Below, in pieces: positions 1-35,504 of a stretch of 35,504 nucleotides of DNA. Numbering within the stretch: position 1 is the first letter of the stretch; each line of letters begins with the position of its first letter. Source of the stretch: a virus; the IMG/VR virus record IMGVR_UViG_3300021387_000081, positions 1 through 35,504 of that record. The stretch is one strand, 5' to 3'. The notes beneath the pieces are model-generated. The model had not been told where the DNA came from. It did no database searches and saw nothing but the letters and a program-made list of their open reading frames with translations. A program made the position numbers and the translations under genes.

Positions 1-107
1 TATCTTATCTCCAGTACGCTGTGCGACGGTATGTACTATGAGCTGACATACAACGGCGACAAGAAGGAATGGTATCTCGACGCTTACAAGAAGTTCGAGA
101 ATGTTGT
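1..107. repeat. Terminal overlap identical to 35398-35504 (circular or terminally redundant contig)
   Basis: Read base by base: tatcttatctccagtacgctgtgcgacgg...gagaatgttgt occurs at both ends with no mismatch. Confidence 0.95.
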
Positions 108-120
108 TATTACTGAATAA
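1..120 (+). CDS. C-terminal 39 codons of the small conserved phage ORF that starts at 35275 (wraps the contig junction)
   Basis: Base 1 equals base 35398, which is in phase with ATG 35275. Stop TAA is at 118-120. Confidence 0.8.
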   Translation, partial: YLISSTLCDGMYYELTYNGDKKEWYLDAYKKFENVVITE

Positions 121-128
121 TGTTTACA

Positions 129-175
129 AGCATTTGCGACCGACAACAATGTCGGCGGCAAGTGCTATTTTTATT
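129..175 (+). promoter_or_regulatory. Conserved extended hairpin plus U-tract, copy A (upstream of protease)
   Basis: agcatttgc (129-137) pairs with gcaagtgct (158-166). Inner stem is ccgaca/tgtcgg with loop acaa, followed by atttttatt. Paralogous to copies at 1494 and 32984. Confidence 0.65.
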
Positions 176-195
176 CCCTGAAAGGATGTGAAAGA

Positions 196-777
196 ATGAA
201 AATCGAAGTCAGAGCTGACGGACTGCATATAAGCGGCTACGTCAACGTCACCGGCAAGCTGAGCAGACCGGTGATAACACCCAGAGGCAAAGTCCTTGAA
301 ACTATCGAGGAGAGAGCTTTCAGCGAGGCTATCAAGAAGAACGGCGACATCACGGTGACACTCGATCACGATCAGGGGCACGCCTATGCAAATACCCGTG
401 ACGGTTCTCTCGTTCTCCGTGAGGACGCTATCGGACTTCACGCCGATGTGCTCATCACAGATGAAACAGTCATCGAAATGGCACGCAAGGGCAAACTGAG
501 AGGCTGGTCCTTCGGTATGTTCAACGTACAGGACGAAATCGAGAGCCGCGGTGAGGACGAGCTGCCGATCAGACACGTCAAGAGCCTGGAACTGGATCAT
601 GTGTCCCTCATCAAGGACAAGATACCGTGCTACGCTGCGACATCGGTGGAGTGCCGTGCAGGCGGTGACATCGACATGGAGCTGCGTTCCCTCGATATCG
701 AGCCTGTGCTTGTCATCGAGAACAAGCCGGACTACAGCGATTATGAGAACAGGCTGAAAATGCTGGAATTCGAGTGA
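196..777 (+). CDS. HK97-family prohead protease (S78/U35-like)
   Basis: 193-aa ORF lying after the portal-side cassette ORFs and before the capsid gene, separated from it by the 778-1563 cassette. N-terminal MKIEVRADGL..GYVNV and the LDHD..H pattern are typical of prohead proteases. SD aaagga lies 9 nt upstream of the ATG. Confidence 0.85.
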   Translation: MKIEVRADGLHISGYVNVTGKLSRPVITPRGKVLETIEERAFSEAIKKNGDITVTLDHDQGHAYANTRDGSLVLREDAIGLHADVLITDETVIEMARKGKLRGWSFGMFNVQDEIESRGEDELPIRHVKSLELDHVSLIKDKIPCYAATSVECRAGGDIDMELRSLDIEPVLVIENKPDYSDYENRLKMLEFE

Positions 778-828
778 AGGGCAATTGAGCTCCGGTATCG
801 CCAGTACATTCAGCTGCCGAATGGTAAA

Positions 829-1179
829 ATGAATGGCAGCAGGAGTATAGGCGGCGGAAGTCGAAAGCTCTATCATCACGATCCGGATACCGGAGGTGGC
901 GGGAGCACGAAGAAAAGTGTTGACAAATCATCAGATGATGGTGTACAATATGGTAAAGAAGAAATCAAGAATGATTTCGATGGAAAACCATATACCTATC
1001 CTGAATTACATTTACCTAAGAAAGAATATGGCACTGTTATAAGGCAAATCGATGATAACTATGAATCTAAGTATAAAGGCAAGAGTATAGGCTTTCACAG
1101 TACGTCAAAATATACCTATAAATTTGAAATACGTGGATATAACGATTATAACATTTTTTCAAAATGGAAAAATGATTAA
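829..1179 (+). CDS. Leader-linker-variable domain module (type-1 leader). The conserved coding signal already starts at 778, in frame after the protease TGA
   Basis: Same frame as the protease. Codons 787-858 encode ELRYRQYIQLPNGKMNGSRSIGGG, matching portal residues encoded at 34278-34349. The C-terminal 75 aa are AT-rich and unrelated to the other cassettes. Confidence 0.55.
   Translation: MNGSRSIGGGSRKLYHHDPDTGGGGSTKKSVDKSSDDGVQYGKEEIKNDFDGKPYTYPELHLPKKEYGTVIRQIDDNYESKYKGKSIGFHSTSKYTYKFEIRGYNDYNIFSKWKND
920..949 (+). promoter_or_regulatory. Sigma-70-like promoter inside the linker codons (TTGACA-18-TACAAT)
   Basis: ttgaca at 920-925 and tacaat at 944-949. Flank aaaagtgTTGACAaatc matches the four other junction promoters. 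This is the weakest of the set. Confidence 0.45.
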
Positions 1180-1190
1180 GGGGTGATTAT

Positions 1191-1388
1191 ATGAATGATG
1201 AGTTTAAAATGCTTATAAAATCTGTTCCTGATACATATGAAGACTTTGAACGTTGGGTATTTCGAGCAGCCGAAACATATGAGGGATATGCAGAATATAT
1301 AATCAACTACTTAAAAGATCATCCAGATGCAACTACAAGTGATATAGCTGCTTATGAAGAGCCTTTTTTAAGGGAAAGAGCAGAATAA
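1191..1388 (+). CDS. Small acidic protein, candidate cognate partner or immunity protein of the upstream variable domain
   Basis: 65-aa ORF with SD aagggg 8 nt upstream. AT-rich like the preceding variable domain and directly followed by terminator T1. Confidence 0.55.
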   Translation: MNDEFKMLIKSVPDTYEDFERWVFRAAETYEGYAEYIINYLKDHPDATTSDIAAYEEPFLRERAE

Positions 1389-1395
1389 TCGAGTT

Positions 1396-1425
1396 ACCGC
1401 CCTCATTGAGAGCGGTTTTCTTATG
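1396..1425 (+). terminator. Intrinsic terminator T1 (family GCGGTTTTCTTATG)
   Basis: accgccctca/tgagagcggt stem followed by ttttcttatg. The tail is shared with T2, T3 and T4. Confidence 0.7.
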
Positions 1426-1493
1426 CCTAAAATACGCAAAACGCTCATAAAATGCGTATCTCATGCTTATGATACGCTCATAAAACGCAAAAA

Positions 1494-1540
1494 AGCATTT
1501 GCTAAGGACACAAATGTCCCTCGCAGGTGCTATTTTTATA
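1494..1540 (+). promoter_or_regulatory. Conserved extended hairpin plus U-tract, copy B (upstream of major capsid gene)
   Basis: agcatttgc (1494-1502) pairs with gcaggtgct (1523-1531). Inner stem is ggaca/tgtcc, followed by atttttata. It carries a compensatory change relative to copies A and C. Confidence 0.65.
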
Positions 1541-1563
1541 CCCATTTAAAGGAGGAAAAATCC

Positions 1564-2718
1564 ATGAAGAAACTTATCGAAAGAAGAGCCGGACTTGTAG
1601 TCCTTCTCAATTCCATGCTGGAAGCTGTAAAGACCGAAAACAGAGCCTTTACAGAAGAGGAGGCAAAGAAGTTTGACGAGACAGAGGCTGAGATCAGGCA
1701 GCTTGATGCTACTATCAAGGCGGAGGAGAGAGCGAAGGGGATAGCTGATCTCCCTGCACCTCAGGCAGCTCCCAAGGCTGAACAGCTCACACAGGAGCAG
1801 ATCGAGGAGAGAGCTTTCGCTGACTTCATAGGCGGCAAGATCACCGAGATGAGAGCAGGCGAACAGAACATCGACTGGACTAACGGTGCATCAACAGTGC
1901 CTACGACTATCGCCAAGCGTATCATCGATGCAGCAGTTGATATGTGTCCCATTCTCGCAGGAGCTGAGGTGTACCACGAAAAAGGCACGCTCAAGATCCC
2001 CAAGTGGACAAAGGCGAACAGCACCCACGATGTGACTGTAGCCTATGCAACTGAGTTCACTCCGCTCACAGCTGACAGCGGCAAGTTCACATCGGTGGAT
2101 CTGGGCGGATACCTTGCAGGTGCTCTCGTTCTTATCGGAAAGAGCGTTATAAACAGTTCAGCGATCAATGTGACAAATTTCGTCATCAACAAGATCGCTG
2201 AGAAAGTGGCACAGTTCCTTGAACAGGAGCTGCTCAAGGGCTCAGGTTCTTCCGCAGCTCAGGGCGCTACCAAGACAAGCAATGTGGTGACTACCGGCAC
2301 TGCGCTTGCTATCGGTTTGGATGATCTTATCGCACTTCAGGCTGCTGTAAAGCAGAAGTATCAGAAAAACTCCTGCTGGACAATGACATCCAATACTTTC
2401 ACTGCACTCAAACAGCTCAAAGACGGCGACAACAGACCTCTTATCCAGCCTGATGTTACAGCGGAATTCCCCTTCAGACTTCTCGGAAAGCCTGTGCATC
2501 TCTCTGATAATATGGACGAGATCGGCGGCAACAAGCTTGCTGTCCTCTACGGTGACTACAGCGGACTCTCCGTGAACTTCCGTGAGGATATCGGTATCGA
2601 GGTACTCAGGGAAGCATACCACACTCAGCATGCTATCGGCATTGATGCGTGGTTCGAGTTCGATTCAAAGGTAACAGATGAGCAGAAGCTTGCTGTGCTC
2701 AAGATCAAGGCATCATAA
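1564..2718 (+). CDS. Major capsid protein, HK97 fold, with N-terminal coiled-coil delta/scaffold-like region
   Basis: ATG 1564 lies 8 nt after aaggagg. N-terminus MKKLIERRAGL..EEEAKKFDE..IRQLDA is delta-domain-like. The length and position after the protease fit. The upstream 47 codons of the tracked ORF overlap hairpin B. Confidence 0.9.
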   Translation: MKKLIERRAGLVVLLNSMLEAVKTENRAFTEEEAKKFDETEAEIRQLDATIKAEERAKGIADLPAPQAAPKAEQLTQEQIEERAFADFIGGKITEMRAGEQNIDWTNGASTVPTTIAKRIIDAAVDMCPILAGAEVYHEKGTLKIPKWTKANSTHDVTVAYATEFTPLTADSGKFTSVDLGGYLAGALVLIGKSVINSSAINVTNFVINKIAEKVAQFLEQELLKGSGSSAAQGATKTSNVVTTGTALAIGLDDLIALQAAVKQKYQKNSCWTMTSNTFTALKQLKDGDNRPLIQPDVTAEFPFRLLGKPVHLSDNMDEIGGNKLAVLYGDYSGLSVNFREDIGIEVLREAYHTQHAIGIDAWFEFDSKVTDEQKLAVLKIKAS

Positions 2719-2725
2719 ACAATGC

Positions 2726-2758
2726 AGCGGACAGGTGAGAGCTTGTCCGCTTAATTCA
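2726..2758 (+). terminator. Weak hairpin/attenuator after the capsid gene
   Basis: agcggacag/cttgtccgct stem followed by a weak T-tract (taattcat). Confidence 0.4.
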
Positions 2759-2778
2759 TAAAGAAAGGCGGTAGCGAT

Positions 2779-3069
2779 ATGAAGATGAGCGAGCTCACAC
2801 CGGAGATCGTAAAAGACTACTGCGGTATCTCAGACAGCGACAGTGATGATATCATCACAGCACTCATATCTGCCGCAAAGGCATATGTCAAAGGCTATAC
2901 CGGGCTTGATGATACTAAGTGCGATGAGCACGATGATATAACTATCGCCTGCATGGTGCTGGTAAATGATATGTTCACTCAGAGGGACTACACACTGAGC
3001 CTTCACAGGCAGGTATCTCCCACGGTAAAGACCATACTCAGCATGTATGCCGTGAATCATCTGGGGTGA
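2779..3069 (+). CDS. Head-tail connector (gp6-like DNA-packaging/connector protein)
   Basis: 96 aa. The pattern LT.E.VK.YCGI.D.D.D..I..LI.AAKAYV is typical of this family, and the gene sits directly after the capsid gene. Confidence 0.75.
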   Translation: MKMSELTPEIVKDYCGISDSDSDDIITALISAAKAYVKGYTGLDDTKCDEHDDITIACMVLVNDMFTQRDYTLSLHRQVSPTVKTILSMYAVNHLG

Positions 3070-5010: not shown

Positions 5011-5279
5011 CGCCTTATTATCCCGGAGACGGAGAGGATAAGGCGTATTTCAAGAATCCCACCGGTGATGAGAAGCTTGTATCAGATTACACGAGACTCA
5101 GCTTCCGTGAGGTGGAGGAACTGGACCTGTTTGAATACTTCGGCTACCTTCATGACGCAGTGGTCTGGGGATGCAGCAGGAGCGAGGCGGGCAGGGAATA
5201 TCTGGAGAACGCATATTACTATCAGCAGACGGAGCCAGACCGTGAGGCACTGAGGAGGTTCGGAAAGAATGGCAGGTAA
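4998..5279 (+). CDS. gpGT-like -1 frame extension of the tail assembly chaperone
   Basis: The -1 frame reads PKLITPYYPGDGEDKAYFKNPTGDEKLVSDYTRLSFREVEELDLFEYFGYLHDAVVWG...RRFGKNGR and stops at TAA 5277-5279, overlapping the tape-measure ATG. Confidence 0.7.
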   Translation, partial: PKLITPYYPGDGEDKAYFKNPTGDEKLVSDYTRLSFREVEELDLFEYFGYLHDAVVWGCSRSEAGREYLENAYYYQQTEPDREALRRFGKNGR

Positions 5280-8200
5280 AGCGATCAAGGGCATCACCAT
5301 ACAGATCGGTGCGGATACAGTCGGACTTGACAAAGCGCTGAAAGGCGTCGAGACAGCCGGAAAGAAGACAGCATCAGAGCTGAGAGAGGTGGAGAATTCC
5401 CTGAAAAAAGCTCCTGATTCCGCTGTGCTGTGGTCACAGAAGCAGGAACTGCTCAATGACGCTCTGGAAAAAAGCCGTGAAAAGCTGAAACTGCTGGAGG
5501 ATGCACAGGCGCAGGTGAATGAGGAATTCAGCAAAGGTGCTGTCAACGAGGAACAGTACAGGGCATTCCAGAGAGAGATAGAAAACACACGTTCAGAAGT
5601 CGGGCGCTATGAGAACGGACTTAAAGATGCAGATGAAAAGGTCCGTGCCCTCGGCGATGATGCAGGCGATACTTCCGGTGATGTGAAGGAACTGGGAGAA
5701 GCAGCTGACTCCACAGCAAGCGGAGGCATATCTGCCATGACTGTCGCCCTCGGTGACCTTGTGGCAGACGGCATAAAAATGGCAGCAAGGGAACTGAAGG
5801 ACTTCACTGTGGATGTGGTGAAGACCGGAGCTGACTTTGAGGCTGGCATGTCTCAGGTGGCTGCCATATCCGGTGCGACCGGTGATGAACTGGAGCGCCT
5901 GACGGCTAAGGCTGAGGAAATGGGCGCTTCCACAAAATTCACTGCCTCAGAATCAGCAGAGGCTTTCAACTACATGGCTATGGCAGGCTGGAAGACTGAG
6001 GATATGCTGGGCGGTATAGACGGTATACTCTCACTTGCAGCTGCATCCGGTGAGGATCTGGCAACGACATCCGATATCGTGACAGACGCTATGACTGCTT
6101 TCGGACTCAGCGCCGATAATGCCGGACACTTTGCGGACGTTCTTGCAGCTGCATCCTCCAACGCGAACACCAATGTCAGCATGATGGGCGAAACGTTCAA
6201 GTATGTCGCTCCCGTTGCCGGCGCAATGAGCTATTCCATTGAGGATACTGCCGAGGCTATAGGTCTTATGGCTAATGCCGGCATCAAATCAACTCAGGCA
6301 GGAACTGCGCTGCGTTCTATCATAACAAGACTTTCCACAGATGCCGGAGCAAGTAAGAACAGTCTGGGTGCTCTTGGCACTCTGACTGAGGAACTCGGAG
6401 TGCAGTTCTACAATGCTGACGGCTCAGCCCGGGACTTCGGTGACGTTCTCAATGAGACAAGAGAAGCGTGGAAAGGGCTGACAGATGAGCAGCAGACATC
6501 CTACGGCAAGACTATCGCCGGCACGAATGCTCTGTCCGGCTGGCTTGCTCTTATGAATGCAGCGCCGGAGGATGTGGAAAAGCTTTCCGGTGCTATAAGA
6601 GACTGTGACGGCGCAGCAACTGATATGTCCACGACTATGATGGATAATCTGCAAGGTGATATGACAGTAATGCAGAGCGCTGTGGACGGTATGAAGATAT
6701 CGCTCTCCAAGGAACTGGAACCGGTGCTCCGCGAAGGAGTGCAGTACATAACAAAGCACATGCCGGAGATACAGAGTGCACTTTCAAAGGTCTTTCGTGC
6801 CGGAGCTGACGGTCTGAGCTTTGCTATACGGAATGTACCGAAGGTAATTAGTGCGGTGCAGGCACTGATGCCGCTGATAAAGACGGCTGCTGCTGCATAC
6901 CTTTCATACAAGCTCTACGATAAGACCGCAAAATTCGTCGGTCTGCTGACTTCCATGACAGGACCGCAGGGGGCTATCGTTGCGGCGGTCGGTGCTGTGG
7001 GACTTCTCACGACAGCTCTCCAGTGGCTGACGGACGCTCAGCACGACGAACTCACAGCCACCGAGAAAATGGAAGAGCAGTACAAAGAAGAACTGGATGC
7101 AGTGGACGGTCTGCGCGGAAGTCTCAATTCCATGAAGGACGATTTCTACAAACGAGCAGGGGATATCAACGCCGAAACAGAACGCACAAAGGATCTCTGG
7201 AAGGAACTTGACAAGCTGACAGATTCCACCGGAAAAGTGCGGGATGCTGACAAGAAAAGGGCGGAATACCTTCTCGGGGAACTGAATACCGCTCTTGGCA
7301 CTGAGTACACCATGACCGGCAACCAGATAGACCGGTACAAGGACATGGAAGCCGAGGTGGACAAGCTCATCGAGAAGAAAAAGGCTTCAATGTATCTGGA
7401 CGAGTTCATGTCTCAGGCTACAGAGCAGAGAAAAGTGCAGGCGGATGCACGGACTGCTTATCAGGAGGCGTATGCTAAAAGGAATGAACTGATGTCGGAT
7501 CCGGAATTTATGAAAGCTGATGAGCGGTTCAAAGAAATTACAGGCAGTTCAATGACAACACATGCTCCTGATGATTACTGGCTTTCTGTAACAAGGGGGC
7601 ATAATGCACAATTTGACCGGAAGTATGAAAACCTGAGCGATGAAGAGTACGATCAGATAGTTCAGGAACTGTATGACATATCCGAGCAGTGGAAAGACAC
7701 TTCCGCTGAGATCATAATGAATCAAAGGCTAATGACCGAGAATCAGGGTGTATATGAGGGATCACTTGGCTGGGAATCGCAGCTCAGAGAGGCTGAGACG
7801 GCGTTCGCAAGTGAAGACTACAGCAAAGTCAGCAGCATCCTCTACGATTCCGACTATGGTGACCGTTACGCGCTGGAGCATGAGTCAGATCTTCAGAAAC
7901 GGCAGGAAAAGTTCCGGGAAATGGTCACAAGATCTCTGGCGGATATGGAACTTGCAATAGACGCAGGCAGTCAGTATGCTGTGGATCAGGCGCTTTCATC
8001 CCTCGGCGAAACTGTTGAGGCAGGTGCTCTGGCAGTTGACGACCTGAGAGACGTATTCAGCCGCGAGTTCATGGACAGAGTGCAGGATATGCTGGACAAG
8101 GGATTCGATATCTCTGCACTGGCGAAATGGGGAAAGGATTCCGGTCTTGACGTGGGCGATATGTTCAGCACCGATTTCAAGACGCTTGTACAGACACAGA

Positions 8201-8799
8201 TAGACCGTGGTTTTGATATCCTCGACCTTCTTGAATGGGGCGCGGATTCAGGTCTTCTCACTGCCGGCAGCTATGATGAAGAGTTCGAAAAAAAGGTGCA
8301 GGAGGCACTGAGCAATTTCTATCCGGATACTTCCGGAATGGTGAAGTGGGCATTGGAAAACGGTGCTTCTCTTGGTGAACTGTTCGGCACCGAGTTCCAG
8401 AGCTGGTCAACAAGGTACATGTGGGCAACAAACAGCTTACAGACGCACAATATCAGCAGTGATTGGGATGCAAAACTATATAATGGCGGTCAAGGCGACT
8501 ATAAGATCGGGTATGTTTCAAAGACTGACTATAAAGCAGCCGGCGGCTGGATATCCGGAGCAGGCATAGTGGCTGAGGCAGGTCCTGAGCTCATCGAGCT
8601 CATCAACGGCGGAGTGAAGGTAACGCCTCTGAGCAGGACGGCAAAGAATACTCCCGTTGGCAGCGGAGACGGTGCAAAGAAGCTGATATACAACAACATC
8701 ACAGTGAATGCGGCAGTCTCATCGGACTATGATGTTACAAGACTGGCAGAAAGACTGGCTGCGGAACAGCGGCGTATCGAGGAGGGAAAAGGTATATGA
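5269..8799 (+). CDS. Tail tape measure protein
   Basis: 1176 aa. It has a coiled-coil N-terminus, a TP901-type core (GMSQVAAISGATGDELE...MGETFKYVAPVAG) and hydrophobic central segments. Confidence 0.9.
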   Translation: MAGKAIKGITIQIGADTVGLDKALKGVETAGKKTASELREVENSLKKAPDSAVLWSQKQELLNDALEKSREKLKLLEDAQAQVNEEFSKGAVNEEQYRAFQREIENTRSEVGRYENGLKDADEKVRALGDDAGDTSGDVKELGEAADSTASGGISAMTVALGDLVADGIKMAARELKDFTVDVVKTGADFEAGMSQVAAISGATGDELERLTAKAEEMGASTKFTASESAEAFNYMAMAGWKTEDMLGGIDGILSLAAASGEDLATTSDIVTDAMTAFGLSADNAGHFADVLAAASSNANTNVSMMGETFKYVAPVAGAMSYSIEDTAEAIGLMANAGIKSTQAGTALRSIITRLSTDAGASKNSLGALGTLTEELGVQFYNADGSARDFGDVLNETREAWKGLTDEQQTSYGKTIAGTNALSGWLALMNAAPEDVEKLSGAIRDCDGAATDMSTTMMDNLQGDMTVMQSAVDGMKISLSKELEPVLREGVQYITKHMPEIQSALSKVFRAGADGLSFAIRNVPKVISAVQALMPLIKTAAAAYLSYKLYDKTAKFVGLLTSMTGPQGAIVAAVGAVGLLTTALQWLTDAQHDELTATEKMEEQYKEELDAVDGLRGSLNSMKDDFYKRAGDINAETERTKDLWKELDKLTDSTGKVRDADKKRAEYLLGELNTALGTEYTMTGNQIDRYKDMEAEVDKLIEKKKASMYLDEFMSQATEQRKVQADARTAYQEAYAKRNELMSDPEFMKADERFKEITGSSMTTHAPDDYWLSVTRGHNAQFDRKYENLSDEEYDQIVQELYDISEQWKDTSAEIIMNQRLMTENQGVYEGSLGWESQLREAETAFASEDYSKVSSILYDSDYGDRYALEHESDLQKRQEKFREMVTRSLADMELAIDAGSQYAVDQALSSLGETVEAGALAVDDLRDVFSREFMDRVQDMLDKGFDISALAKWGKDSGLDVGDMFSTDFKTLVQTQIDRGFDILDLLEWGADSGLLTAGSYDEEFEKKVQEALSNFYPDTSGMVKWALENGASLGELFGTEFQSWSTRYMWATNSLQTHNISSDWDAKLYNGGQGDYKIGYVSKTDYKAAGGWISGAGIVAEAGPELIELINGGVKVTPLSRTAKNTPVGSGDGAKKLIYNNITVNAAVSSDYDVTRLAERLAAEQRRIEEGKGI

Positions 8800-15516: not shown

Positions 15517-15873
15517 TTAAAATGCCTTTTCTTCTTCATCGTTCAGCCACTCTGCTACTGCGGCTATGTACAGTGAGTTTGATGGGATATCATCTGATCC
15601 TTGCAGGCTGTTGCTGAATATTTCCTTTGACAGCTCACGGTCACGGCGATGCCAGCTTTCCTTTATTGCCGATCTGGCTGCCCGCTCGACTGCTGCTGAG
15701 GTCGTGCCAAATTCTTCCGCAAGCTTCGGATAGAGCAGCTGCGACAGGTTAGTCACTGACCTCGGATCGCGCATGCAATATGCGATCCCTTTTTTTATGT
15801 ACTGGTACCCCTTGACACTCGGCTGGTTCCCCAGTAACATCAGTATTCTTGAAATTCTGCGCCCGATATTCAT
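15517..15873 (-). CDS. Spo0A C-terminal (DNA-binding) domain protein lacking a receiver domain
   Basis: VKGYQYIKKGIAYCM...LYPKLAEEFGTTSAAVERAARSAIKESWHR aligns with the B. subtilis Spo0A segment IKGYLYLREAI...[30 protein letters not shown]. The start is MNIGRR after aaggag. Confidence 0.8.
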   Translation of the reverse strand: MNIGRRISRILMLLGNQPSVKGYQYIKKGIAYCMRDPRSVTNLSQLLYPKLAEEFGTTSAAVERAARSAIKESWHRRDRELSKEIFSNSLQGSDDIPSNSLYIAAVAEWLNDEEEKAF

Positions 15874-15918
15874 AATTGCTCCTTTCAAAATATCGAGTAA
15901 CGTAATGACATCTGATGC

Positions 15919-15942
15919 CGTGTCCATTTTCGTGTCCATTTT
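15919..15942. repeat. Tandem 12-nt repeat cgtgtccatttt x2, candidate integrase arm-type sites
   Basis: Same core GTGTCC(A/G)TTTT and same orientation as the pair at 16137-16160 on the other side of the attP core. Confidence 0.5.
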
Positions 15943-16001
15943 ATTGCAGAAAACATTAATATCCACTTTGTTTTCTTAAATCTCACAAAGAATATGGAAA
16001 T

Positions 16002-25964: not shown

Positions 25965-26729
25965 GTGGCTAATCCGCAGTTAAAGAACGGATATACCAAG
26001 ATAGCAAACGAGTTGCTCGAAGCAATATGCAGGCTTAATATCTCAGGCAATGAAATGCGGATATTGCTGTACATTATCCGCAGGACTTATGGGTTCAACA
26101 GAAGTTATGCAGAGATATCACTTTCAGAGATTGCAAGTGCTGTAGGGACAAGATCTGTGCATATTTCAAGGGCATTAAAAAAGCTTTCAGCACTGAATCT
26201 GATAGAACTGAGATCAAGTGAAGGTGTTAAACCTCAGACTATTTCCATTGTGAAAGATTATGAAGAATGGGCTGTTGAAAGTTGTACAGAATTACTATTA
26301 CCAAAAATGGTAACCGTTACCAAAAATGGTAACCTTACTATTACCAAAAATGGTAACTCTACTATTACCAAAAATGGTAACCCTACTATTACCAAAAATG
26401 GTAACCCTACATATAAAGACAATATTAAAGAAAATATTAAAGACAGTTTTAAATACAACAAAACAACCTACGGCAGAAATGGAAAAGTATTGTTGAAAAC
26501 CGAGGAGTACGACAAATTAATTAACGATTACGGGAAGAAAACAGCTGAGAGGTACATTGATCGTATGGATAATTATTTGGCATCCCAAAGCCGAGAGTAC
26601 AAGGACTGCTATGCTGAGCTTCTTGTCTGGCTCGATAAGGACGGAGTTCAAAAAAATGATCCAGATGCTTTCGATGTTGATAAGTACAAGTTCGTTATCA
26701 ACAGATTCGGGAAGGAGAAAGCGCGGTGA
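25965..26729 (+). CDS. Replication initiator/replisome organizer (phage O-like N-terminal domain) with internal iterons
   Basis: Contains NGYTKIANELLEAI....SGNEMRILLYIIRRTYGF, a winged-helix replication-protein N-terminus. GTG start follows gaggtg. Confidence 0.8.
   Translation: MANPQLKNGYTKIANELLEAICRLNISGNEMRILLYIIRRTYGFNRSYAEISLSEIASAVGTRSVHISRALKKLSALNLIELRSSEGVKPQTISIVKDYEEWAVESCTELLLPKMVTVTKNGNLTITKNGNSTITKNGNPTITKNGNPTYKDNIKENIKDSFKYNKTTYGRNGKVLLKTEEYDKLINDYGKKTAERYIDRMDNYLASQSREYKDCYAELLVWLDKDGVQKNDPDAFDVDKYKFVINRFGKEKAR
26298..26405. repeat. Five iterons TTACCAAAAATGGTAAC (candidate ori) inside the replication gene
   Basis: Copies start at 26298, 26317, 26341, 26365 and 26389. Each is an inverted repeat TTACCA/TGGTAA. 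They are translated as the (I)TKNGN repeats. Confidence 0.8.
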
Positions 26730-27941: not shown

Positions 27942-28016
27942 GGCAGGTTGGAACAGCGGCAGTTCGCAAGGCTCATAACCTTGAGGTCGTGGGTTCGAGT
28001 CCCACACCTGCAACCA
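27942..28016 (+). tRNA. tRNA with CAT anticodon (Met, or Ile2 if lysidine-modified)
   Basis: Manual cloverleaf: acceptor ggcaggt/acctgca, D stem gaac/gttc, anticodon stem caagg/ccttg with loop ctCATaa, T arm gtggg-ttcgagt-cccac, and an encoded ACCA. Positions 1 and 72 are G and A (unpaired). Confidence 0.8.
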
Positions 28017-28743: not shown

Positions 28744-29214
28744 ATGAAAGGACGTGATACTGTGGCGAGACCGGCAATGAGTGCGAAAACTACGTCAAAG
28801 CACCTTACGAAGGCGGAGGCTGAGGCAAAGTCCTCGACCGAAGAACTGCTCAGAGGCAGGGCAGACAGGCTGCGTCCGCCTAAGTATCTGACGACTGCGC
28901 AGAAGAAGATCTTCAAGTTCATCGTCCGGGAACTGGAGGGCAGCGGCATCCTTGGCAATCTGGACATCTATGTGCTGACCGAGTGCTGCATCGCGCTTGA
29001 CAGGATGCAGGAGATAGAGAGCAGGATCAATCAGGATCCGGTGCAGCTCAGCAATGACAAGCTGCTGCAATCGAAGGACAGATATACGAAGTCCTTCTTC
29101 CGCTGCTGCAATGAGCTGTGCCTGAGTCCTCAGAGCAGGGCGAAAATGGGCAACCTCAACTTGCAGGCGAAGGAAGAGAATCCGCTGCTGAAGGTGCTGA
29201 GCGATGATGAATAA
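28744..29214 (+). CDS. terS: Terminase small subunit (P27 family)
   Basis: Contains P.YLT..QKKIFKFIV.EL...GILGNLD...L...C.ALDR, typical of P27-family small subunits. Confidence 0.8.
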   Translation: MKGRDTVARPAMSAKTTSKHLTKAEAEAKSSTEELLRGRADRLRPPKYLTTAQKKIFKFIVRELEGSGILGNLDIYVLTECCIALDRMQEIESRINQDPVQLSNDKLLQSKDRYTKSFFRCCNELCLSPQSRAKMGNLNLQAKEENPLLKVLSDDE

Positions 29215-29839
29215 AGACTGGTTCATAGATTACGCGGAACATGCGGTCAGAGTGATAGACATCGAGACACGCTGGTATGAGCTCAGAGGCTGGATAACAA
29301 AAAACGGAAGGCATATCCTGATTGGCGATGATGAGGGTGGCAGCTCCACCAGCGGAGCAGGCAGAAAAGCTGCCAAAAAGGTTGACAAAGCCGGGGAAAG
29401 TGGTATAATTGAAGAAAAGACAGGAGAAACGGCGGGAACTGATGTGCATAAAGTTGGAAAGATAGATGTTGAAAAGTTTGAAACTATTGCAAATGGAAGA
29501 ATTCTCACCGACGAGGTGATCATAACAGATAATCGGATCGAACACATTATTGAGCGAAGAGGTCAGAAGTTTTATGACGATTTTAAAGGCTATTTTCCTG
29601 AAATAATAGAAGCACCCGACTATATATTCAAAGATGATATGGACAATACAGCTATTGTGTCTAAATCATATAGCCATAAGGGAAAAACAGTAAACTTAGT
29701 TCTTAGGCTCGTAGTTGAAGGGGAAAACCCAAGCTATAAGAATTCTATACTAACTGCAATTGGTGAGAACGAGAAAAGATTTGCTCAACGTTTACGCAAT
29801 AACGTTCCTGTGTATAAAAAAGTTGACAAATCAGAATAA
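29204..29839 (+). CDS. Type-2 leader, Gly/Ser linker and PBECR-like (barnase-EndoU-colicin E5/D-RelE fold) nuclease domain
   Basis: 211 aa. The leader is WFIDYAEHAVRVIDIETRWYELRGWITKNGRHILIG. The C-terminus ITDNRIEHIIERRG...PEIIEAPDYIFKD..NTAIVSK...VNLVLRL resembles phage PBECR domains. The gene sits between terS and terL. Confidence 0.7.
   Translation: MMNKDWFIDYAEHAVRVIDIETRWYELRGWITKNGRHILIGDDEGGSSTSGAGRKAAKKVDKAGESGIIEEKTGETAGTDVHKVGKIDVEKFETIANGRILTDEVIITDNRIEHIIERRGQKFYDDFKGYFPEIIEAPDYIFKDDMDNTAIVSKSYSHKGKTVNLVLRLVVEGENPSYKNSILTAIGENEKRFAQRLRNNVPVYKKVDKSE
29219..29325 (+). repeat. 107-nt direct repeat (leader coding), partner at 31762-31868
   Basis: 9 mismatches by eye. Five fall in the codons for ELRG and all five are synonymous. 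Confidence 0.9.
29382..29409 (+). promoter_or_regulatory. Extended -10 consensus promoter inside the linker codons (KKVDKAGESGII)
   Basis: TTGACA at 29382-29387, a 16-nt spacer ending in tgg, and TATAAT at 29404-29409. Confidence 0.55.
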
Positions 29840-29851
29840 ATGTGATATAAT
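29823..29851 (+). promoter_or_regulatory. Extended -10 consensus promoter at the 3' end of the PBECR-like ORF (KKVDKSE-stop)
   Basis: TTGACA at 29823-29828, a 17-nt spacer ending in tga, and TATAAT at 29846-29851. Confidence 0.6.
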
Positions 29852-29857
29852 GAAGGT

Positions 29858-29980
29858 AAGATAAGAGTAGGTTATCAGAGGTGGTAAATTTCGTAGCGAC
29901 CACACGCCGCTGGTAACGACAGGGAGTAATCCCGAGAGATGCAGGAGAATGCTACGCCTGCCTGATAACCACTCTTTCCA
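29858..29980 (+). ncRNA. Candidate structured RNA between terS-side cassette and terL
   Basis: A 15-bp long-range helix (29863-29878 with 29962-29976, one bulged A) encloses hairpins 29881-29903, 29922-29933 (GUAA loop) and 29941-29961. Two hairpin loops carry complementary hexamers cgtagc and gctacg. Confidence 0.45.
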
Positions 29981-29981
29981 G

Positions 29982-30014
29982 ACCGCTTCGAGAAATCGGA
30001 GCGGTTTTCTTATA
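29982..30014 (+). terminator. Intrinsic terminator T4 (family GCGGTTTTCTTAT)
   Basis: accgcttcga/tcggagcggt stem with GAAA loop, followed by ttttcttata. Confidence 0.7.
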
Positions 30015-30041
30015 CCCGGACGCAGAAAGGAGCTGACAGCA

Positions 30042-31742
30042 ATTGACATAGTGAAGAACAGCAGAGCTTATAAATATGCTCTGTGGTGTACCGAGCCGGA
30101 CAATCACTATGTCGGGCGGTACATAAAGAAGCAGGCGGTGATCTGGCTGGAGATAGCGGACGGTCAGAGCGATGAAGCATATGTCTGTGAGAAGCGCTGG
30201 AAGAAGATAACGAAGCTGCTGAAGATCATCATGCACCCTGACCTCGGACATTCGATGTATGAGGGACTTGAGGACTACGCAGTTTTATTCATATATGCCT
30301 TGTTCTGTACAAAGCGCCGGAGCGACAGTCTCCGGTACTACGAGACCGGGCTTTTAGAGATCGCGAGGAAGAACTTCAAGACGTTCACCTCAGCGGTCAT
30401 TTTTATTATCGGACTGCTGACAGAGCCGAAGTTCAGCCGCTTTTTCAGTGTGGCACCGGATCTGAAACTCTCCAGTGAATTGCAGGTGGCTATCAAGAAG
30501 ATAATCAAGTCGAGCCCCTGTCTGGCGGACGAGAAGGTGTTCAAGCTGCTGCGGAAGGAGATACGCTGCAAGCTGACTGACTCTGAGTATACTCCTCTTG
30601 CTTACTTACAGGACAAGATGGACGGAAAGCTTGCAAATATGTTTCTTGCTGACGAGTGCGGAGCAATGGACAACTATCCCATAGAAGCCATGCGATCCTC
30701 ACAGATCGTGCTGAGGGAGAAGCTTGGCATCATCATCTCTACCCAGTACCCCAATGACAACAATGCTATGCTGGAAGAGGTTGACAACGCCAAAAAGATC
30801 CTTGACGGACTACGGCATGGAAGGGTGTTCGCACTGCTCTATGAGCCGGATGATGAGTTCAAGACCGGCGATGCGTGGATGACATCGGACACAGCGCTGT
30901 ATCAGGCTAATCCGGTGGCGTACGCCCATGAATACGTCATGGATGACCTGAGGGCGAAGCGTCAGGCTGCCATAGATTATGAGAACAAGCGGGAGAACTT
31001 CCTGTGCAAGCACATGAACATCCTCTACAAAGGACTCGGAGTTGAGGGATTTGTCGAGATAACGAAGGTAAGACTGTGTAAAGTTCCGGCGGATGCTGAG
31101 TTCTGGAGGGGCAGACAGGTATATATCGGGCTTGACCTCTCTCAGACCGATGACAATACCTCGGTCGCAATGGTGACATATGATGCGGATGAGGATATGA
31201 TATACGTCAAGGTCTGGGGATTCATCCCGGCTGACCGCATCGACGAGAAATCCCAGCGCGAAAAGGTGGATTACAAGAAGCTCATAGCCGCAGGAGAATG
31301 CTTTGCCTGCGGTGATGAGGTCATTGACTACGGCTTTGTGGAGCGGTTCATACAGTCGCTGCCGGAGCAGTACGGCGTTGAGATAGTTCAGCTGGGCTTT
31401 GACCGGTACAATGCTATCTCCACAGTACAGAAGCTGGAAAGCGGAGAGGATCCGATCGAGTGCGTTGAGATTAGACAGCACAGCAGCGTCTTACACAGAC
31501 CAACGAAGCTGCTGAAAGAACGTATCCTGAGCCGTAAGCTGCGGTATGAGGAGAATCATATGCTGGAGATCAACTTCCAGAACGCCAGATGCACCGAGGA
31601 CACGAATCTGAACAAGTATGTCAACAAGAGAAAGTCCGCCGGCAAGGTGGATATGGTGGTATCTGTCATAAACGCGCTGTATCTCTTGCAGGTGAATGTG
31701 CTTGACAGCATGGAGCAGGGGTTCGGGTGCCAGATCATATGA
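30042..31742 (+). CDS. terL: Terminase large subunit (start uncertain: ATT 30042 or GTG 30051)
   Basis: A Terminase_1-like sequence over about 560 aa. The tracked 5' extension contains terminator T4. SD aaaggag lies 9 nt before ATT and 18 nt before GTG. Confidence 0.85.
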   Translation: MDIVKNSRAYKYALWCTEPDNHYVGRYIKKQAVIWLEIADGQSDEAYVCEKRWKKITKLLKIIMHPDLGHSMYEGLEDYAVLFIYALFCTKRRSDSLRYYETGLLEIARKNFKTFTSAVIFIIGLLTEPKFSRFFSVAPDLKLSSELQVAIKKIIKSSPCLADEKVFKLLRKEIRCKLTDSEYTPLAYLQDKMDGKLANMFLADECGAMDNYPIEAMRSSQIVLREKLGIIISTQYPNDNNAMLEEVDNAKKILDGLRHGRVFALLYEPDDEFKTGDAWMTSDTALYQANPVAYAHEYVMDDLRAKRQAAIDYENKRENFLCKHMNILYKGLGVEGFVEITKVRLCKVPADAEFWRGRQVYIGLDLSQTDDNTSVAMVTYDADEDMIYVKVWGFIPADRIDEKSQREKVDYKKLIAAGECFACGDEVIDYGFVERFIQSLPEQYGVEIVQLGFDRYNAISTVQKLESGEDPIECVEIRQHSSVLHRPTKLLKERILSRKLRYEENHMLEINFQNARCTEDTNLNKYVNKRKSAGKVDMVVSVINALYLLQVNVLDSMEQGFGCQII

Positions 31743-31749
31743 GGTGGAT

Positions 31750-32385
31750 ATGGATAATAATTGGTTCATGGACTACGCGGAACATGCGGTCAGAGTGATA
31801 GACATCGAGACACACTGGTATGAATTACGCGGCTGGATAACAAAAAACGGAAGGCATATACTGATTGGTGAAGAAGGCAGTTCTTCCGGCGGAGCAGGCA
31901 AGAGTATTGACAAATCTGCGAAAAGTGGTATAATAAAATCAGGAGCGGTGAGTGGTGCATTATCTCCTGCCAGCAAAGAAGCACAGGCTCATGCTGAGCA
32001 ATACTATGAGTCTGTTCGTAAAATGAAAACAGATGTAAAAAACATCTCAAATAATACCGGCTTTAGTGAAAGCGACATTTTGCAAATAAAGAATCATGTA
32101 TTCATAGAAGAACATGATTTGGGCGGAGACGTCCCAGAGCGTTTTTATCCCAATTATGCTATGGCTCAATCATGGCAAAGGCTTATTGAGGGTAAAAACA
32201 TCCAGAAGCACGATATTACACTGCTTCATCACGAAAAAATGGAAAGCGATTTGATGAAGAAGGGCTTATCTCAGATAAAAGCTCATAGTATATCTGAGAA
32301 AAAGTTTAATTATGCTAAAGAAAGTAGGGAGTATTATGCTGAGATTAATAAACATAGCGATAGGACTAAAAACAATCGAAGCTGA
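31750..32385 (+). CDS. Type-2 leader, Gly/Ser linker and an unrecognised C-terminal domain
   Basis: 211 aa. The leader is WFMDYAEHAVRVIDIETHWYELRGWITKNGRHILIG. The C-terminal region ...IKNHVFIEEHDLGG..PERFYPNYAMAQSWQRLIEGKNIQKHDITLLHHEKMESDL has no homology to the other cassettes. ATG 31750 follows gaggtgg. Confidence 0.7.
   Translation: MDNNWFMDYAEHAVRVIDIETHWYELRGWITKNGRHILIGEEGSSSGGAGKSIDKSAKSGIIKSGAVSGALSPASKEAQAHAEQYYESVRKMKTDVKNISNNTGFSESDILQIKNHVFIEEHDLGGDVPERFYPNYAMAQSWQRLIEGKNIQKHDITLLHHEKMESDLMKKGLSQIKAHSISEKKFNYAKESREYYAEINKHSDRTKNNRS
31762..31868 (+). repeat. 107-nt direct repeat (leader coding), partner at 29219-29325
   Basis: See the partner repeat. A 40-nt block tacgcggaacatgcggtcagagtgatagacatcgagacac is identical in both. 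Confidence 0.9.
31907..31934 (+). promoter_or_regulatory. Extended -10 consensus promoter inside the linker codons (KSIDKSAKSGII)
   Basis: TTGACA at 31907-31912, a 16-nt spacer ending in tgg, and TATAAT at 31929-31934. Confidence 0.55.
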
Positions 32386-32604: not shown

Positions 32605-32721
32605 ATGAAAGTTAAGTACACTGGTAAAACAAGTTTTCTTGTTCTGACAAACGGAAAGATATATGATGTCATTTCTGTCGAAAAAGGTTGGTACAGAATC
32701 AAAGACGACAAAGGTGCTTAA
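32605..32721 (+). CDS. 38-aa short paralogue of the ORF at 34721-34882
   Basis: MKVKYTGKTSFLVLTNGKIYDVISVEKGWYRIKDDKGA compared with MKVKYIGKQYLDTAFEKDKIYEVISVEKGWYRIMTELDEDYLFPPECFEIVEE. SD ggtgggagg. Confidence 0.45.
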   Translation: MKVKYTGKTSFLVLTNGKIYDVISVEKGWYRIKDDKGA

Positions 32722-32811
32722 AGCAACTAAAAAAGGTGAATATCGTGATAACGAATACCGAACGGTAGTAAATAAATTCCTTGATAATCAGCAGAAAGGT
32801 GGGCTTTTTGA

Positions 32812-32922
32812 ATGGAAGAAATGAATGTAGTTCTTGACGGATCAAATAAGGAAGGCTCTGAGAGACTTGCTGAAATGATCAAAAGACTTGAGGAAGAAAA
32901 GAAAAAAGATAAGACCGTCTGA
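32812..32922 (+). CDS. 36-aa charged peptide (speculative)
   Basis: SD aaaggtggg lies 8 nt upstream. The stop lies inside the T3 stem. Confidence 0.3.
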   Translation: MEEMNVVLDGSNKEGSERLAEMIKRLEEEKKKDKTV

Positions 32923-32944
32923 GAGATCAGGCGGTTTTCTTATG
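32914..32944 (+). terminator. Intrinsic terminator T3 (family GCGGTTTTCTTATG)
   Basis: accgtctga/tcaggcggt stem with loop gaga, followed by tttcttatg. Confidence 0.7.
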
Positions 32945-32983
32945 CCTATATTAAAACGCGAAGTGAAGTAAACAACGCTTGAA

Positions 32984-33030
32984 AGCATTTGTGACCGGCA
33001 CCAATGTCGGCTGCAAGTGCTGTTTTTATA
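32984..33030 (+). promoter_or_regulatory. Conserved extended hairpin plus U-tract, copy C (upstream of portal)
   Basis: agcatttgt (32984-32992) pairs with gcaagtgct (33013-33021). Inner stem is ccggca/tgtcgg, followed by gtttttata. Confidence 0.65.
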
Positions 33031-34724: not shown

Positions 34725-34882
34725 AAGTCAAATATATAGGTAAACAGTATTTAGATACAGCTTTTGAAAAAGACAAAATATATGAAGTTATTTCGGTTGA
34801 AAAAGGCTGGTATAGGATAATGACTGAGCTTGACGAAGATTATCTTTTTCCACCTGAATGCTTTGAAATCGTAGAAGAATAA
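34721..34882 (+). CDS. 53-aa small protein, candidate cognate partner, paralogue of 32605-32721
   Basis: ATGA overlap with the portal stop. SD agaggtgg. Confidence 0.55.
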   Translation: MKVKYIGKQYLDTAFEKDKIYEVISVEKGWYRIMTELDEDYLFPPECFEIVEE

Positions 34883-34945: not shown

Positions 34946-35212
34946 ATGTGTAAACTTTTTGATGAATGGGCATCAGAGATTGAGATGTTTTGTCAGAAAA
35001 ATGATCTCAGCTTTGACAAGGCAAAGACACTTTCGCAGTGTTGGGGAAAAGACGATCTTATCTTGCAGTACTACGATAAAGAAAAGGGGAAAAACGGACT
35101 GCTCGATGAAACACCTATGCCTGTTGTTCTCTGGATAAAACGTGATAAGAATGGAAATCTTTCATTTGAAAAAACTGAGCATACTGAAAAATACCTTGGA
35201 AAAGTTTCCTAA
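34946..35212 (+). CDS. 88-aa hypothetical protein (cassette cargo)
   Basis: ATG 34946 lies 7 nt after agggag. It is followed directly by terminator T2. Confidence 0.6.
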   Translation: MCKLFDEWASEIEMFCQKNDLSFDKAKTLSQCWGKDDLILQYYDKEKGKNGLLDETPMPVVLWIKRDKNGNLSFEKTEHTEKYLGKVS

Positions 35213-35221
35213 TACTTCAAA

Positions 35222-35251
35222 ACCGCCCTCACTGAGAGCGGTTTTCTTATG
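35222..35251 (+). terminator. Intrinsic terminator T2 (family GCGGTTTTCTTATG)
   Basis: accgccctca/tgagagcggt followed by ttttcttatg. It differs from T1 at one loop base. Confidence 0.7.
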
Positions 35252-35274: not shown

Positions 35275-35504
35275 ATGGACGAGAAAGCCTTACAGATAGT
35301 CAGAGATTATATATTTGCACATCTCGACAAGACGGATACTGTTCCGCCTTTTGATGTCTATATGGTCTGGAAGTGCAAAGCCTTGCAGAACTGGAAGTAT
35401 CTTATCTCCAGTACGCTGTGCGACGGTATGTACTATGAGCTGACATACAACGGCGACAAGAAGGAATGGTATCTCGACGCTTACAAGAAGTTCGAGAATG
35501 TTGT
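35275..35504 (+). CDS. Small conserved phage protein (79 aa in total; continues at 1-120)
   Basis: ATG 35275 follows aggaggtgag. Translation MDEKALQIVRDYIFAHLDKTDTVPPFDVYMVWKCKALQNWKYLISSTLCDGMYYELTYNGDKKEWYLDAYKK resembles a widespread head-module hypothetical family. Confidence 0.75.
   Translation, partial: MDEKALQIVRDYIFAHLDKTDTVPPFDVYMVWKCKALQNWKYLISSTLCDGMYYELTYNGDKKEWYLDAYKKFENV
35398..35504. repeat. Terminal overlap identical to 1-107
   Basis: See feature 1-107. Confidence 0.95.

Follow-up and report, generated by a model that had tools for sequence, protein, structure and literature searches.

The DNA analysed here, called the window, is the whole of a viral stretch of 35,504 nucleotides (IMG/VR virus record IMGVR_UViG_3300021387_000081, positions 1 to 35,504). 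It is a complete circular genome of 35,397 bp, with positions 1–107 duplicated at 35398–35504. It is the genome of a temperate, siphovirus-type Ruminococcus phage or prophage, with genes for a tyrosine integrase, a Rha regulator, a GH25 lysin and replication protein O. Its head module is of the HK97 type and comprises the small terminase subunit (TerS, 28744–29214), the large terminase subunit (TerL, 29949–31742), the portal protein (~33048–34724), a Peptidase_S78 protease (196–777) and the major capsid protein (1564–2718). The element in question is a segment that directly follows the gene for the prohead protease. It is open in the protease's own frame beyond an in-frame UGA, has no start codon at its beginning and resembles the C-terminal extension of the portal protein. 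The features of this locus, in order of position, are as follows:

196–777 (+): prohead (capsid maturation) serine protease of 193 residues, stop TGA at 775–777 (Pfam Peptidase_S78, E=3e-24; PHROG head maturation protease)
667–768 (+): C-terminal tail of the protease, residues 158–191, including the putative autocleavage motif M-E-L-R↓S (679–687)
775–777 (+): in-frame UGA followed by A (UGA-A), preceded by acidic E-F-E; TGA-A in 10 of 10 related junctions
778–858 (+): leader without a start codon, reading R-A-I, then E-L-R (a putative prohead-protease cleavage site), then YRQYIQLPNGKMNGSRSIGGG
859–918 (+): Gly-rich linker SRKLYHHDPDTGGGGSTKKS, a mosaic among relatives
919–1179 (+): variable C-terminal domain of 86 residues, termed the WKND type, stop TAA at 1177–1179; fold unassigned
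920–949 (+): predicted sigma-70-type promoter in the V-D-K-S..Y junction codons (TTGACA, 18 nucleotides, TACAAT; 11 of 12 matches, no TG)
1191–1388 (+): cognate immunity-like gene of 65 residues with a good ribosome-binding site
1396–1425 (+): cassette terminator, a hairpin at 1396–1416 with a U-tract; repeated at 35222–35251 and ~32913–32953
1494–1539 (+): stable hairpin with a U-run, directly upstream of the ribosome-binding site of the major capsid protein gene
1564–2718 (+): major capsid protein, HK97 fold (Pfam Phage_capsid)

An open frame behind the protease stop

As a preliminary description of this DNA had stated, the protease ends at the TGA and its frame then stays open through 778–1179, reading RAIELRYRQYIQLPNGKMNGSRSIGGG... 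for 133 codons; in some relatives the extension exceeds 220 codons. That description had labelled the segment a leader-effector module, relying on a comparison of codons 787–858 with the leader at the C-terminus of the portal protein (34278–34349). Recomputing this comparison returned exactly the same numbers: 20 of the 24 residues are identical, 14 of them through different synonymous codons and 6 through identical codons, with 4 replacements. The nucleotide differences between the two leaders number 5, 1 and 16 at the first, second and third codon positions, and their DNA identity is 69%. Moreover, the likeness crosses the stop codon, with E-F-E-TGA-R-A-I-ELR at the end of the protease against G-E-E-R-A-L-T-ELR in the portal. 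Further 3ʹ, the likeness in a TKK(S)VDKS stretch is kept at the DNA level and overlaps the −35 box of the promoter; because it is that −35 box, this stretch provides no evidence for peptide-level selection.

Positions 778–828 contain no in-frame ATG, GTG or TTG, the first canonical start being ATG 829, and no Shine-Dalgarno (SD)-like sequence is apparent before that codon on reading the sequence. The earlier claim that both a start and an SD are missing between 778 and 829 is upheld. The accompanying claim that 14 conserved codons precede ATG 829 holds for the alignment, which does cover 14 codons, but only 12 of these are conserved, with L/G and N/D differing at the other two. Chance as the source of the open frame and its junction can be excluded on these patterns, because an open frame of 133 codons is improbable in DNA of 28–37% GC and because the junction recurs in 10 related contexts.

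Toxin/immunity cassettes and their promoter-bearing junction

Four modules of the same design are found in the genome: two are standalone genes that start at an ATG of their own, one forms the C-terminal extension of the portal protein and one is the post-protease segment, whose cassette spans ~770–1520. Each cassette opens with an E-L-R leader, which is followed by a Gly-rich linker and then by the KKVDK(S/A)..II junction; behind the variable C-terminal domain come a small gene and a terminator made up of a hairpin and a U-tract. The genes that carry the other three modules are:

29204–29839 (+): standalone effector a, with its own ATG, an N-terminal peptide, a ELRGWITKNGRHILIG leader, a predicted junction promoter at 29382–29409 and a PBECR2 nuclease domain (Pfam E=1.2e-8)
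31750–32385 (+): standalone effector b, N-terminus 88% nucleotide-identical to that of effector a, with a predicted junction promoter at 31907–31934 and a different C-terminal domain
33048–34724 (+): portal protein (Pfam Phage_portal, residues 43–362; start codon uncertain), with the C-terminal leader at 34278–34349 and a toxin domain to 34721
34721–34882 and 34946–35212 (+): immunity-like small genes of the portal cassette, then the terminator at 35222–35251

At least five C-terminal types stand behind the same leaders. These include PBECR2 and, in other post-protease cassettes, Ntox50, which is known from polymorphic toxin systems and predicted to be an RNase toxin with a BECR fold (PMC3482391). 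The toxin domain on the window's portal is of another type than the post-protease one, and WKND-type domains are found fused to portal C-termini in other contigs. The WKND domain itself (919–1179) has a GC content of 28–35%, against ~52% for the backbone, and no Pfam or PHROG match. Its AlphaFold2 model has a predicted local distance difference test score (pLDDT) of 81, and a Foldseek search with this model found no significant structural match, the best E-values being 0.08 (PDB) and 0.03 (BFVD).

Each toxin type is paired with its own downstream small gene at portal, post-protease and orphan sites. A homologous small gene trails the WKND-type toxin at every site, including positions 930–1130 of L121 and 442–654 of L124 (L numbers denote related contigs). 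These small downstream genes are immunity-like and are candidate cognate immunity genes. A constant part joined to variable toxin domains, a cognate small gene and a breakpoint at the pre-toxin motif, which are features of polymorphic toxin systems as defined by Zhang et al. (2012), were all found. The segment behind the protease is very probably a polymorphic toxin/immunity cassette with a promoter-bearing junction, and the label given to it earlier was a good one, as it pairs a polymorphic toxin domain with a cognate immunity-like gene and the same type occurs on portal C-termini elsewhere. Additionally, a truncated paralogue of the portal-cassette immunity-like gene at 34721–34882 lies upstream of the portal (32606–32722; 38 residues, MKVKYTGKTSF..EKGWYRIKDDKGA) and may be a remnant of an earlier cassette.

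The cassette junctions double as promoter sequences. In the window, the junctions at 29382–29409, 31907–31934 and 34366–34393 each read TTGACA-16 nucleotides-TATAAT, 12 of 12 matches, with an extended −10 TG. A fourth promoter with 12/12 matches (29823–29851; 17-nucleotide spacer, extended −10 TG) overlaps the last codons of effector a (KKVDKSE-stop). All four of these perfect promoters fall within coding regions and coincide with a (K)KVDK(S/A) motif; the chance expectation is ~0.003 per 7 kb. The V-D-K codons supply the −35 box and the ..I-I codons the −10 box. Among 18 cassette junctions scanned in relatives, 13 have TTGACA, a 16-nucleotide spacer and TATAAT together with the TG, 2 have TAAAAT, and the remaining 3, which are of the WKND type, have an 18-nucleotide spacer and TA(C/G)AAT with no TG. 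The −35 box TTGACA is invariant, and the junction promoter is present in every cassette of every related locus examined. The junction codons are evidently dual-coded as a consensus promoter. About 20 nucleotides 3ʹ of the promoter at 29823–29851, between effector a and TerL, an Rfam skipping-rope RNA is recognized at 29871–29969 (RF02924, 51 bits, E=1.7e-9).

Comparisons between relatives show how these cassettes are exchanged. In L002, the protease gene differs from that of the window by a synonymous divergence (pS) of 0.13 over the first 190 codons and the cassette is absent, the protease ending KMLG-TAA with the capsid gene 95 nucleotides on; the limits of the window's insert come from the comparison with this cassette-free relative. 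L120 is 97–100% identical to the window across the protease, TGA, leader and linker, and identity is ~25% directly past TTGACAAA (V-D-K), where a different toxin/immunity pair follows. The GC content changes from ~52% in the leader, a value like that of the backbone, to 28–37% in the toxin/immunity region. Furthermore, L007 and L119 contain the same two cassettes with the portal and post-protease positions exchanged. From the L120 breakpoint, the drop in GC and the L007/L119 swap, it follows that the promoter box is the recombination junction between the constant leader and the variable toxin, and that the post-protease site evidently takes an active part in cassette exchange.

Possible expression of the post-protease toxin

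The boundary between protease and cassette was followed in ten contexts, whose lineages are not fully independent: the window, L120, L007/L008/L117, L010, L036, L119, L125–128, L129, L136 and L137. A scan of metagenome and genome collections with degenerate junction patterns returned nearly all chance matches, the true ones being the known contigs and one Ruminococcus flavefaciens metagenome-assembled genome (MAG). In 10 of 10 contexts the protease stop is TGA, the next base (+4) is A and the module is in frame, and the leader at this site is full in every case. The residues before the stop are acidic (EFE, EYE, DYE, DDA or DDD) and those after it read (RA/RE/KD)(I/A)ELR. Behind this boundary stand three leader types (ELRYRQYIQ.., ELRGWITKNGRHILIG and ELRYNHNHDEKGRF) and at least five toxin types, and the related contexts have no canonical in-frame start after the stop for up to ~80 codons.

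The protease genes of the ten contexts have diverged to pS 0.5–0.8, near saturation. The variable sites after the stop number 1, 1 and 6 by codon position over 6 codons, and 2, 3 and 17 over 19 codons of the ELRGW type; this pattern is like that of the protease's own last 20 codons (5, 5 and 16). The codon after the stop begins with A in 10/10 contexts, whereas the ELR arginine codon in the same sequences begins with C in 8/10 (Fisher p=0.0007). A UGA followed by A is the context most open to misreading by tRNA-Trp (PMC5289835), and ~6% UGA readthrough has been measured in wild-type Bacillus subtilis (PMC7918605).

True orphan cassettes have a different arrangement. Those of L121–123, which lie beside a recombinase gene, share no frame relation with the gene upstream and have a leader shortened by a two-codon deletion, and that of L124 has lost the leader entirely. 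DNA homology does not explain the conservation of the leader, because leader copies that are only 69% identical make a poor recombination substrate.

Additional evidence comes from the standalone effectors of relatives, a family found by a full HMMER search (a word-indexed search with the window's standalone leader gave 4 matches). In these effectors, which are encoded between TerS and TerL, the first ~31 residues are homologous to the last ~35 of the protease, and this tail homologue is joined straight to the leader with no stop. P0138, which begins MDVIIEHRSLCMEPELVIDYSDYERRLRAIE-ERGWITKNGRHILIG.. and carries Ntox50, is 56% identical to protease residues 158–191 over 34 residues (BLASTP, E=2e-7), and P0187 is 47% identical to the protease tail (BLASTP, E=9e-7); both genes are sited between TerS and TerL. 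The window's own standalone N-terminal peptides have modest similarity to the tail (shuffle p between 6e-4 and 0.18). Because standalone effectors carry the tail homologue directly on the leader, tail-leader-toxin is apparently a working polypeptide design in this phage group, and the post-protease arrangement reads as that design with a UGA between tail and leader. By analogy with the HK97 protease and with the capsid-targeting sequences of T4 and P1, the tail is likely to be a capsid-targeting peptide that brings cargo into the procapsid.

The delta-domain border of the capsid protein, the protease tail and the leaders share a conserved E-x-R motif with A, S or G as the next residue. In the capsid protein, an alignment of relatives places the motif at residues 94–101 (T-E-M-R↓A-GEQN, with E-M-R encoded at 1846–1854), a putative delta-domain cleavage site. 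The protease-tail motifs are MELR↓S and IEQR↓G, and ELR is the sole invariant element across all leader types. This distribution fits a common cleavage site for the protease, and the putative N-termini after E-x-R are SLDIEPVLVIENK in the protease tail and AGEQNIDWTNGASTVPTTIAK in the capsid protein.

The best single explanation for these observations, with a probability of about one half, is that the toxin of this segment is expressed through low-level UGA readthrough, which would produce small amounts of a protease-toxin fusion to be packed into the capsid and set free at E-L-R. In the late phase of expression, most ribosomes would stop at UGA-A and yield the normal protease of 193 residues, while a few percent would insert Trp and read on to give a protease-leader-toxin protein of ~37 kDa. 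The C-terminal tail of the protease would bring this fusion into the assembling procapsid, as it would for the protease itself. Within the procapsid, the protease would cut after E-x-R in the capsid protein, its own tail and the leader, so that a small toxin would be left free in the head and ejected with the DNA. The junction promoter would transcribe the immunity gene independently of late transcription, both in the lysogen and right after DNA entry, and toxin/immunity pairs are swapped at the junction between the portal site, the post-protease site and the standalone genes. The complete scheme, in which a leaky UGA-A loads a swappable toxin and the tail serves as a portable targeting peptide, with release at E-L-R and a dual-coded promoter for the antidote, is put forward tentatively, as its chances fall slightly short of even.

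The preliminary description had left two options, programmed UGA readthrough and an orphan module retained without its own start. These are still the right candidates, and the comparative data lean towards readthrough through the invariant in-frame TGA-A junction, the truncated leaders of the orphans and the standalone genes with a tail-leader fusion. However, several observations weigh against readthrough. There is no conserved stimulatory RNA structure after the UGA (RNAalifold consensus −2.8 kcal/mol, no covariation); such an element is not required in known bacterial readthrough cases. No suppressor tRNA is encoded, the only tRNA being tRNA-Met (anticodon CAT, 27942–28016), and TGA, which ends 33 of 55 crude open reading frames (ORFs), is the most frequent normal stop of the genome, so it is not special in itself. 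Homologues had been expected to be informative if they held a sense codon at the TGA position, and no such fusion occurs among ~5.8 billion and ~1.8 billion proteins. Near-identical proteases are found with and without the junction (L002), and the post-protease toxin of L119 is frameshifted in an A7 run, on a scaffold with Ns. A homologous junction, E-E-R-A..ELR, with comparable codon variation is present at portal sites, which leaves room for gene conversion, and the contrast between the +4 A and the homologous portal arginine reaches only p=0.087. The in-frame junction may have had a single origin and spread by recombination. Finally, translation past the stop is itself an inference, as are the cleavage site, targeting by the tail, toxicity and immunity.

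Selection on the toxin domain does not tell the two options apart. Synonymous divergence had been taken as proof that selection acts on this copy, an argument that fails as stated, as two true orphans give an equally low ratio of nonsynonymous to synonymous substitution (dN/dS). The toxin-domain dN/dS is 0.10 between the orphans, 0.14 for the post-protease pair and 0.08–0.18 between portal and post-protease copies. Low values are thus shared by true orphans, and therefore the signature of purifying selection may be inherited from expressed life at portal sites. The use of dN/dS to tell translated from silent copies was dropped, given that the orphan-orphan control returns the same value.

The main rival, less probable than readthrough but plausible, is that the cassette is silent, its toxin part being untranslated here and kept for the promoter-driven immunity gene and as a recombination reservoir for the portal site. 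The immunity gene would protect lysogens against the same toxin from related phages, and the in-frame abutment would be a relic of ancestral recombination with the portal 3ʹ end, after which the stop restored protease termination. The resemblance of the junction E-stop-R-A to the portal's E-E-R-A agrees with such an origin, as does the movement of cassettes between portal and post-protease sites, but the leader is kept at the protein rather than the DNA level and so would be a poor recombination handle. Undoubted orphans with intact toxin ORFs and low dN/dS do exist (L121 and L124); however, true orphans drop or truncate the leader, whereas the post-protease leader is full and in frame in 10/10 contexts that span pS 0.5–0.8. 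While the promoter, immunity gene and terminator make up a self-sufficient unit and the toxin has neither a start codon nor an SD, the +4 A is invariant, the I/A spacer codon specific to the post-protease site varies synonymously and the standalone genes use the tail-leader-toxin architecture. A silent toxin would also account for the absence of a readthrough-stimulating structure and of a sense-codon fusion anywhere searched, yet the site does not lie downstream of the main toxin/immunity pair, unlike the orphan arrays of contact-dependent inhibition (CDI) and Rhs systems.

Simple decay, initiation at ATG 829 and recoding are each unlikely. That the segment is a decaying remnant, a pseudogenised 3ʹ fragment of the portal with no present function, is improbable. 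It is startless, and the toxin ORF of L119 is frameshifted, but in the window, L120, L007, L127 and L136 the ORF is unbroken and as long as its portal-fused homologues. Moreover, the cognate small gene, promoter and terminator are all intact, and the toxin has recently been swapped at the post-protease site between near-identical phages.

Independent initiation at ATG 829, which would give a leaderless protein of 116 residues (public annotation P0001, hypothetical protein), is very improbable. This codon is the first canonical start in frame and is chosen by gene callers; however, it lacks an SD and falls within the conserved leader, past the invariant ELR. The ELRGW-type leaders, found at seven of the ten related junctions, are without any Met, and in L007 and L010, the two measured, the first in-frame start is 81–84 codons downstream. 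Additionally, the internal promoter at 920–949 lies downstream of ATG 829, which would thus be missing from prophage-state transcripts. Initiation at a non-canonical ATT/ATC, three codons past the stop, was also ruled out, as the codon of L010 at this position is GCC.

The reading of TGA as a sense codon, through an alternative code or a phage suppressor tRNA, would mean that the protease is always fused and is barely credible. A public gene call, P0009 (L119 1220–1777), did read the homologous TGA as Trp, but the DNA is TGA and the call used code 4, under which two TGA codons were translated as Trp; the fusion is spurious. TGA ends 33/55 crude ORFs, including those of the portal, the large terminase and the tape-measure protein, with no long in-frame extensions, and tRNA-Met is the sole tRNA. 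A suppressor tRNA or general recoding is ruled out by this tRNA content and TGA stop usage.

Relation to known systems and the surrounding genome

In temperate phages of Firmicutes, MuF polymorphic toxins consist of a head-associated constant part with variable C-terminal toxins and are accompanied by immunity genes (Jamet et al. 2017, PMC5576092; Zhang et al. 2012, PMC3482391). The cassettes described here are similar in having BECR-fold RNases such as Ntox50 among their toxins and in that the toxin is presumed to be packaged and injected. However, the toxins are carried in this case by the C-terminus of the portal, by a short peptide of the protease-tail type and, through an in-frame UGA, by the protease gene. 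No MuF domain (PF04233, PF06152, MuF3/4) was found in Pfam scans, which gave Phage_portal or Peptidase_S78 as the carriers and, as the sole MuF-related match, a sub-threshold MuF_C at E=0.032 and 14.8 bits against a cut-off of 27.6, and because this domain is absent the cassette system is not a member of the MuF family. Orphans, readthrough and promoters are unmentioned in the text of PMC5576092 (0 occurrences each). Fusions of portal or MuF domains with PBECR, 2H and InPase effectors have been catalogued, with a prediction that they are injected (Iyer et al. 2017, PMC5512222), and effector a of the window likewise has a PBECR2 domain. The architectures in that study are domain architectures, without the E-L-R leader, promoter junction, cognate immunity genes, multi-site exchange and post-protease UGA site.

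The orphans of CDI and Rhs systems are startless toxin tips that keep a piece of the constant region and an immunity gene and can recombine into the expressed locus. They sit in arrays downstream of the main toxin/immunity pair and have a variable 5ʹ truncation. In contrast, the post-protease site holds one cassette only, whose leader is complete and joined in frame to another gene, that for the protease. This cassette is separated from the portal toxin/immunity pair by the DUF6275 and protease genes, and its boundary is identical in all 10 contexts. The likeness to CDI/Rhs orphans that had been drawn for this segment therefore extends to the missing start and the retained immunity gene but not to position or boundary; L121 and L124 do fit the orphan pattern.

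A parallel for the UGA is the A1 protein of bacteriophage Q-beta, in which a leaky UGA at the end of the coat gene yields a few extended copies per particle. Similarly, a leak-prone UGA here ends an abundant structural gene and full fusion is avoided. Unlike Q-beta, which is a single-stranded RNA phage whose extension is a structural/infectivity domain, the phage here is a double-stranded DNA phage of siphovirus type, the extension is a swappable toxin and readthrough is only proposed.

As for targeting, Duda, Oh and Hendrix reportedly showed in 2013 that the C-terminal domain of the HK97 protease directs the protease to the procapsid. For the internal proteins of T4, a short targeting peptide directs diverse cargo into the procapsid and is cut off there by the prohead protease, after which the cargo is injected along with the DNA (PMC3012670); P1 DarB likewise has a capsid-targeting sequence (PMC9024508). 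In the cassettes, the targeting peptide would differ from these in being the protease's own tail, used in cis by readthrough or copied onto standalone genes, and the cargo would be polymorphic toxins with immunity genes rather than anti-restriction proteins.

Phage morons comprise a promoter, a gene and a terminator inserted between late genes. Like them, the post-protease cassette is an AT-rich insert between two head genes, absent from L002, with its own predicted sigma-70 promoter (920–949) and terminator (hairpin 1396–1416 and U-tract). Unlike in morons, the promoter lies inside the upstream toxin ORF, is dual-coded and marks the recombination junction.

To these known systems, the cassettes add the UGA-linked protease site, the reuse of the protease tail and the dual-coded promoter junction, for which no report was found in the literature covered by the search. 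Phage-delivered polymorphic toxins are known mainly as MuF fusions, and the entry of other cargo into HK97-type heads is poorly understood. If readthrough does occur as proposed, a double-stranded DNA phage would be using a stop codon to set the dose of an injected effector, of which a literature search likewise found no report. The protease tail would then be a natural portable capsid-targeting peptide with a release site, usable for packaging foreign proteins into HK97-like capsids. Regardless of readthrough, the sequence holds four cassette sites in a 35-kb genome, exchange between the portal and post-protease sites and a promoter that doubles as a breakpoint. Together, these findings amount to a compact arrangement by which a temperate phage can vary its toxins and still keep the antidote expressed.

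Public copies of the window's proteins carry the label Ruminococcus sp., and one relative is contained in the Ruminococcus flavefaciens MAG. When positions 1–3000 were compared by blastn with 50,697 deposited phage genomes, no relative of this part of the window emerged, the sole match being 78 nucleotides of an unrelated small gene. The DUF6275 gene (Pfam E=4e-29), which runs from 35277 to 35504 and continues to 118, separates the portal cassette from the protease and accounts for this match, with 77–82% DNA identity over 78 nucleotides to hypothetical genes of Lactobacillus phages P1, P2 and LP65.

Paralogous hairpins with U-runs precede the ribosome-binding sites of the protease (116–174), capsid (1481–1539) and portal (32971–33029) genes. 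Their predicted stabilities are −19 to −24 kcal/mol (z −3.8 to −6.4), and the stems differ by compensating changes. In L002, which has no cassette, a shorter hairpin and U-run (GCACC..GGTGC, then TATTTTTAT) stands at the same place before the capsid gene. The paralogous hairpins could be attenuators or processing sites, and if they attenuate or are processed, late transcription would need antitermination. For the portal gene, the only canonical start candidate nearby, GTG 33048, overlaps an SD-like AAAGGAG, and a start at TTG 32979, the next one upstream, would bring the conserved hairpin into the coding region.

Elsewhere in the genome, a 62-codon ORF at 5065–5253, 3ʹ of the tail chaperone gene, has a TGA stop in frame with the tape-measure ORF (5269–8799), which begins 5 codons on. 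This match in frame is probably a coincidence, and the ORF is probably the usual frameshift-extension region. In the lysogeny region, a protein with a Spo0A_C DNA-binding domain (Pfam E=5e-26) is encoded on the minus strand at 15520–15966, and interference with host sporulation or stationary-phase control is a possible role for it. Within the Phage_rep_O homologue (Pfam E=5e-22; ORF 25965–26729), five to six tandem 24-nucleotide repeats (TTACCAAAAATGGTAAC..) at 26292–26436 have the form of the classic lambda-like arrangement of origin iterons inside replication gene O.

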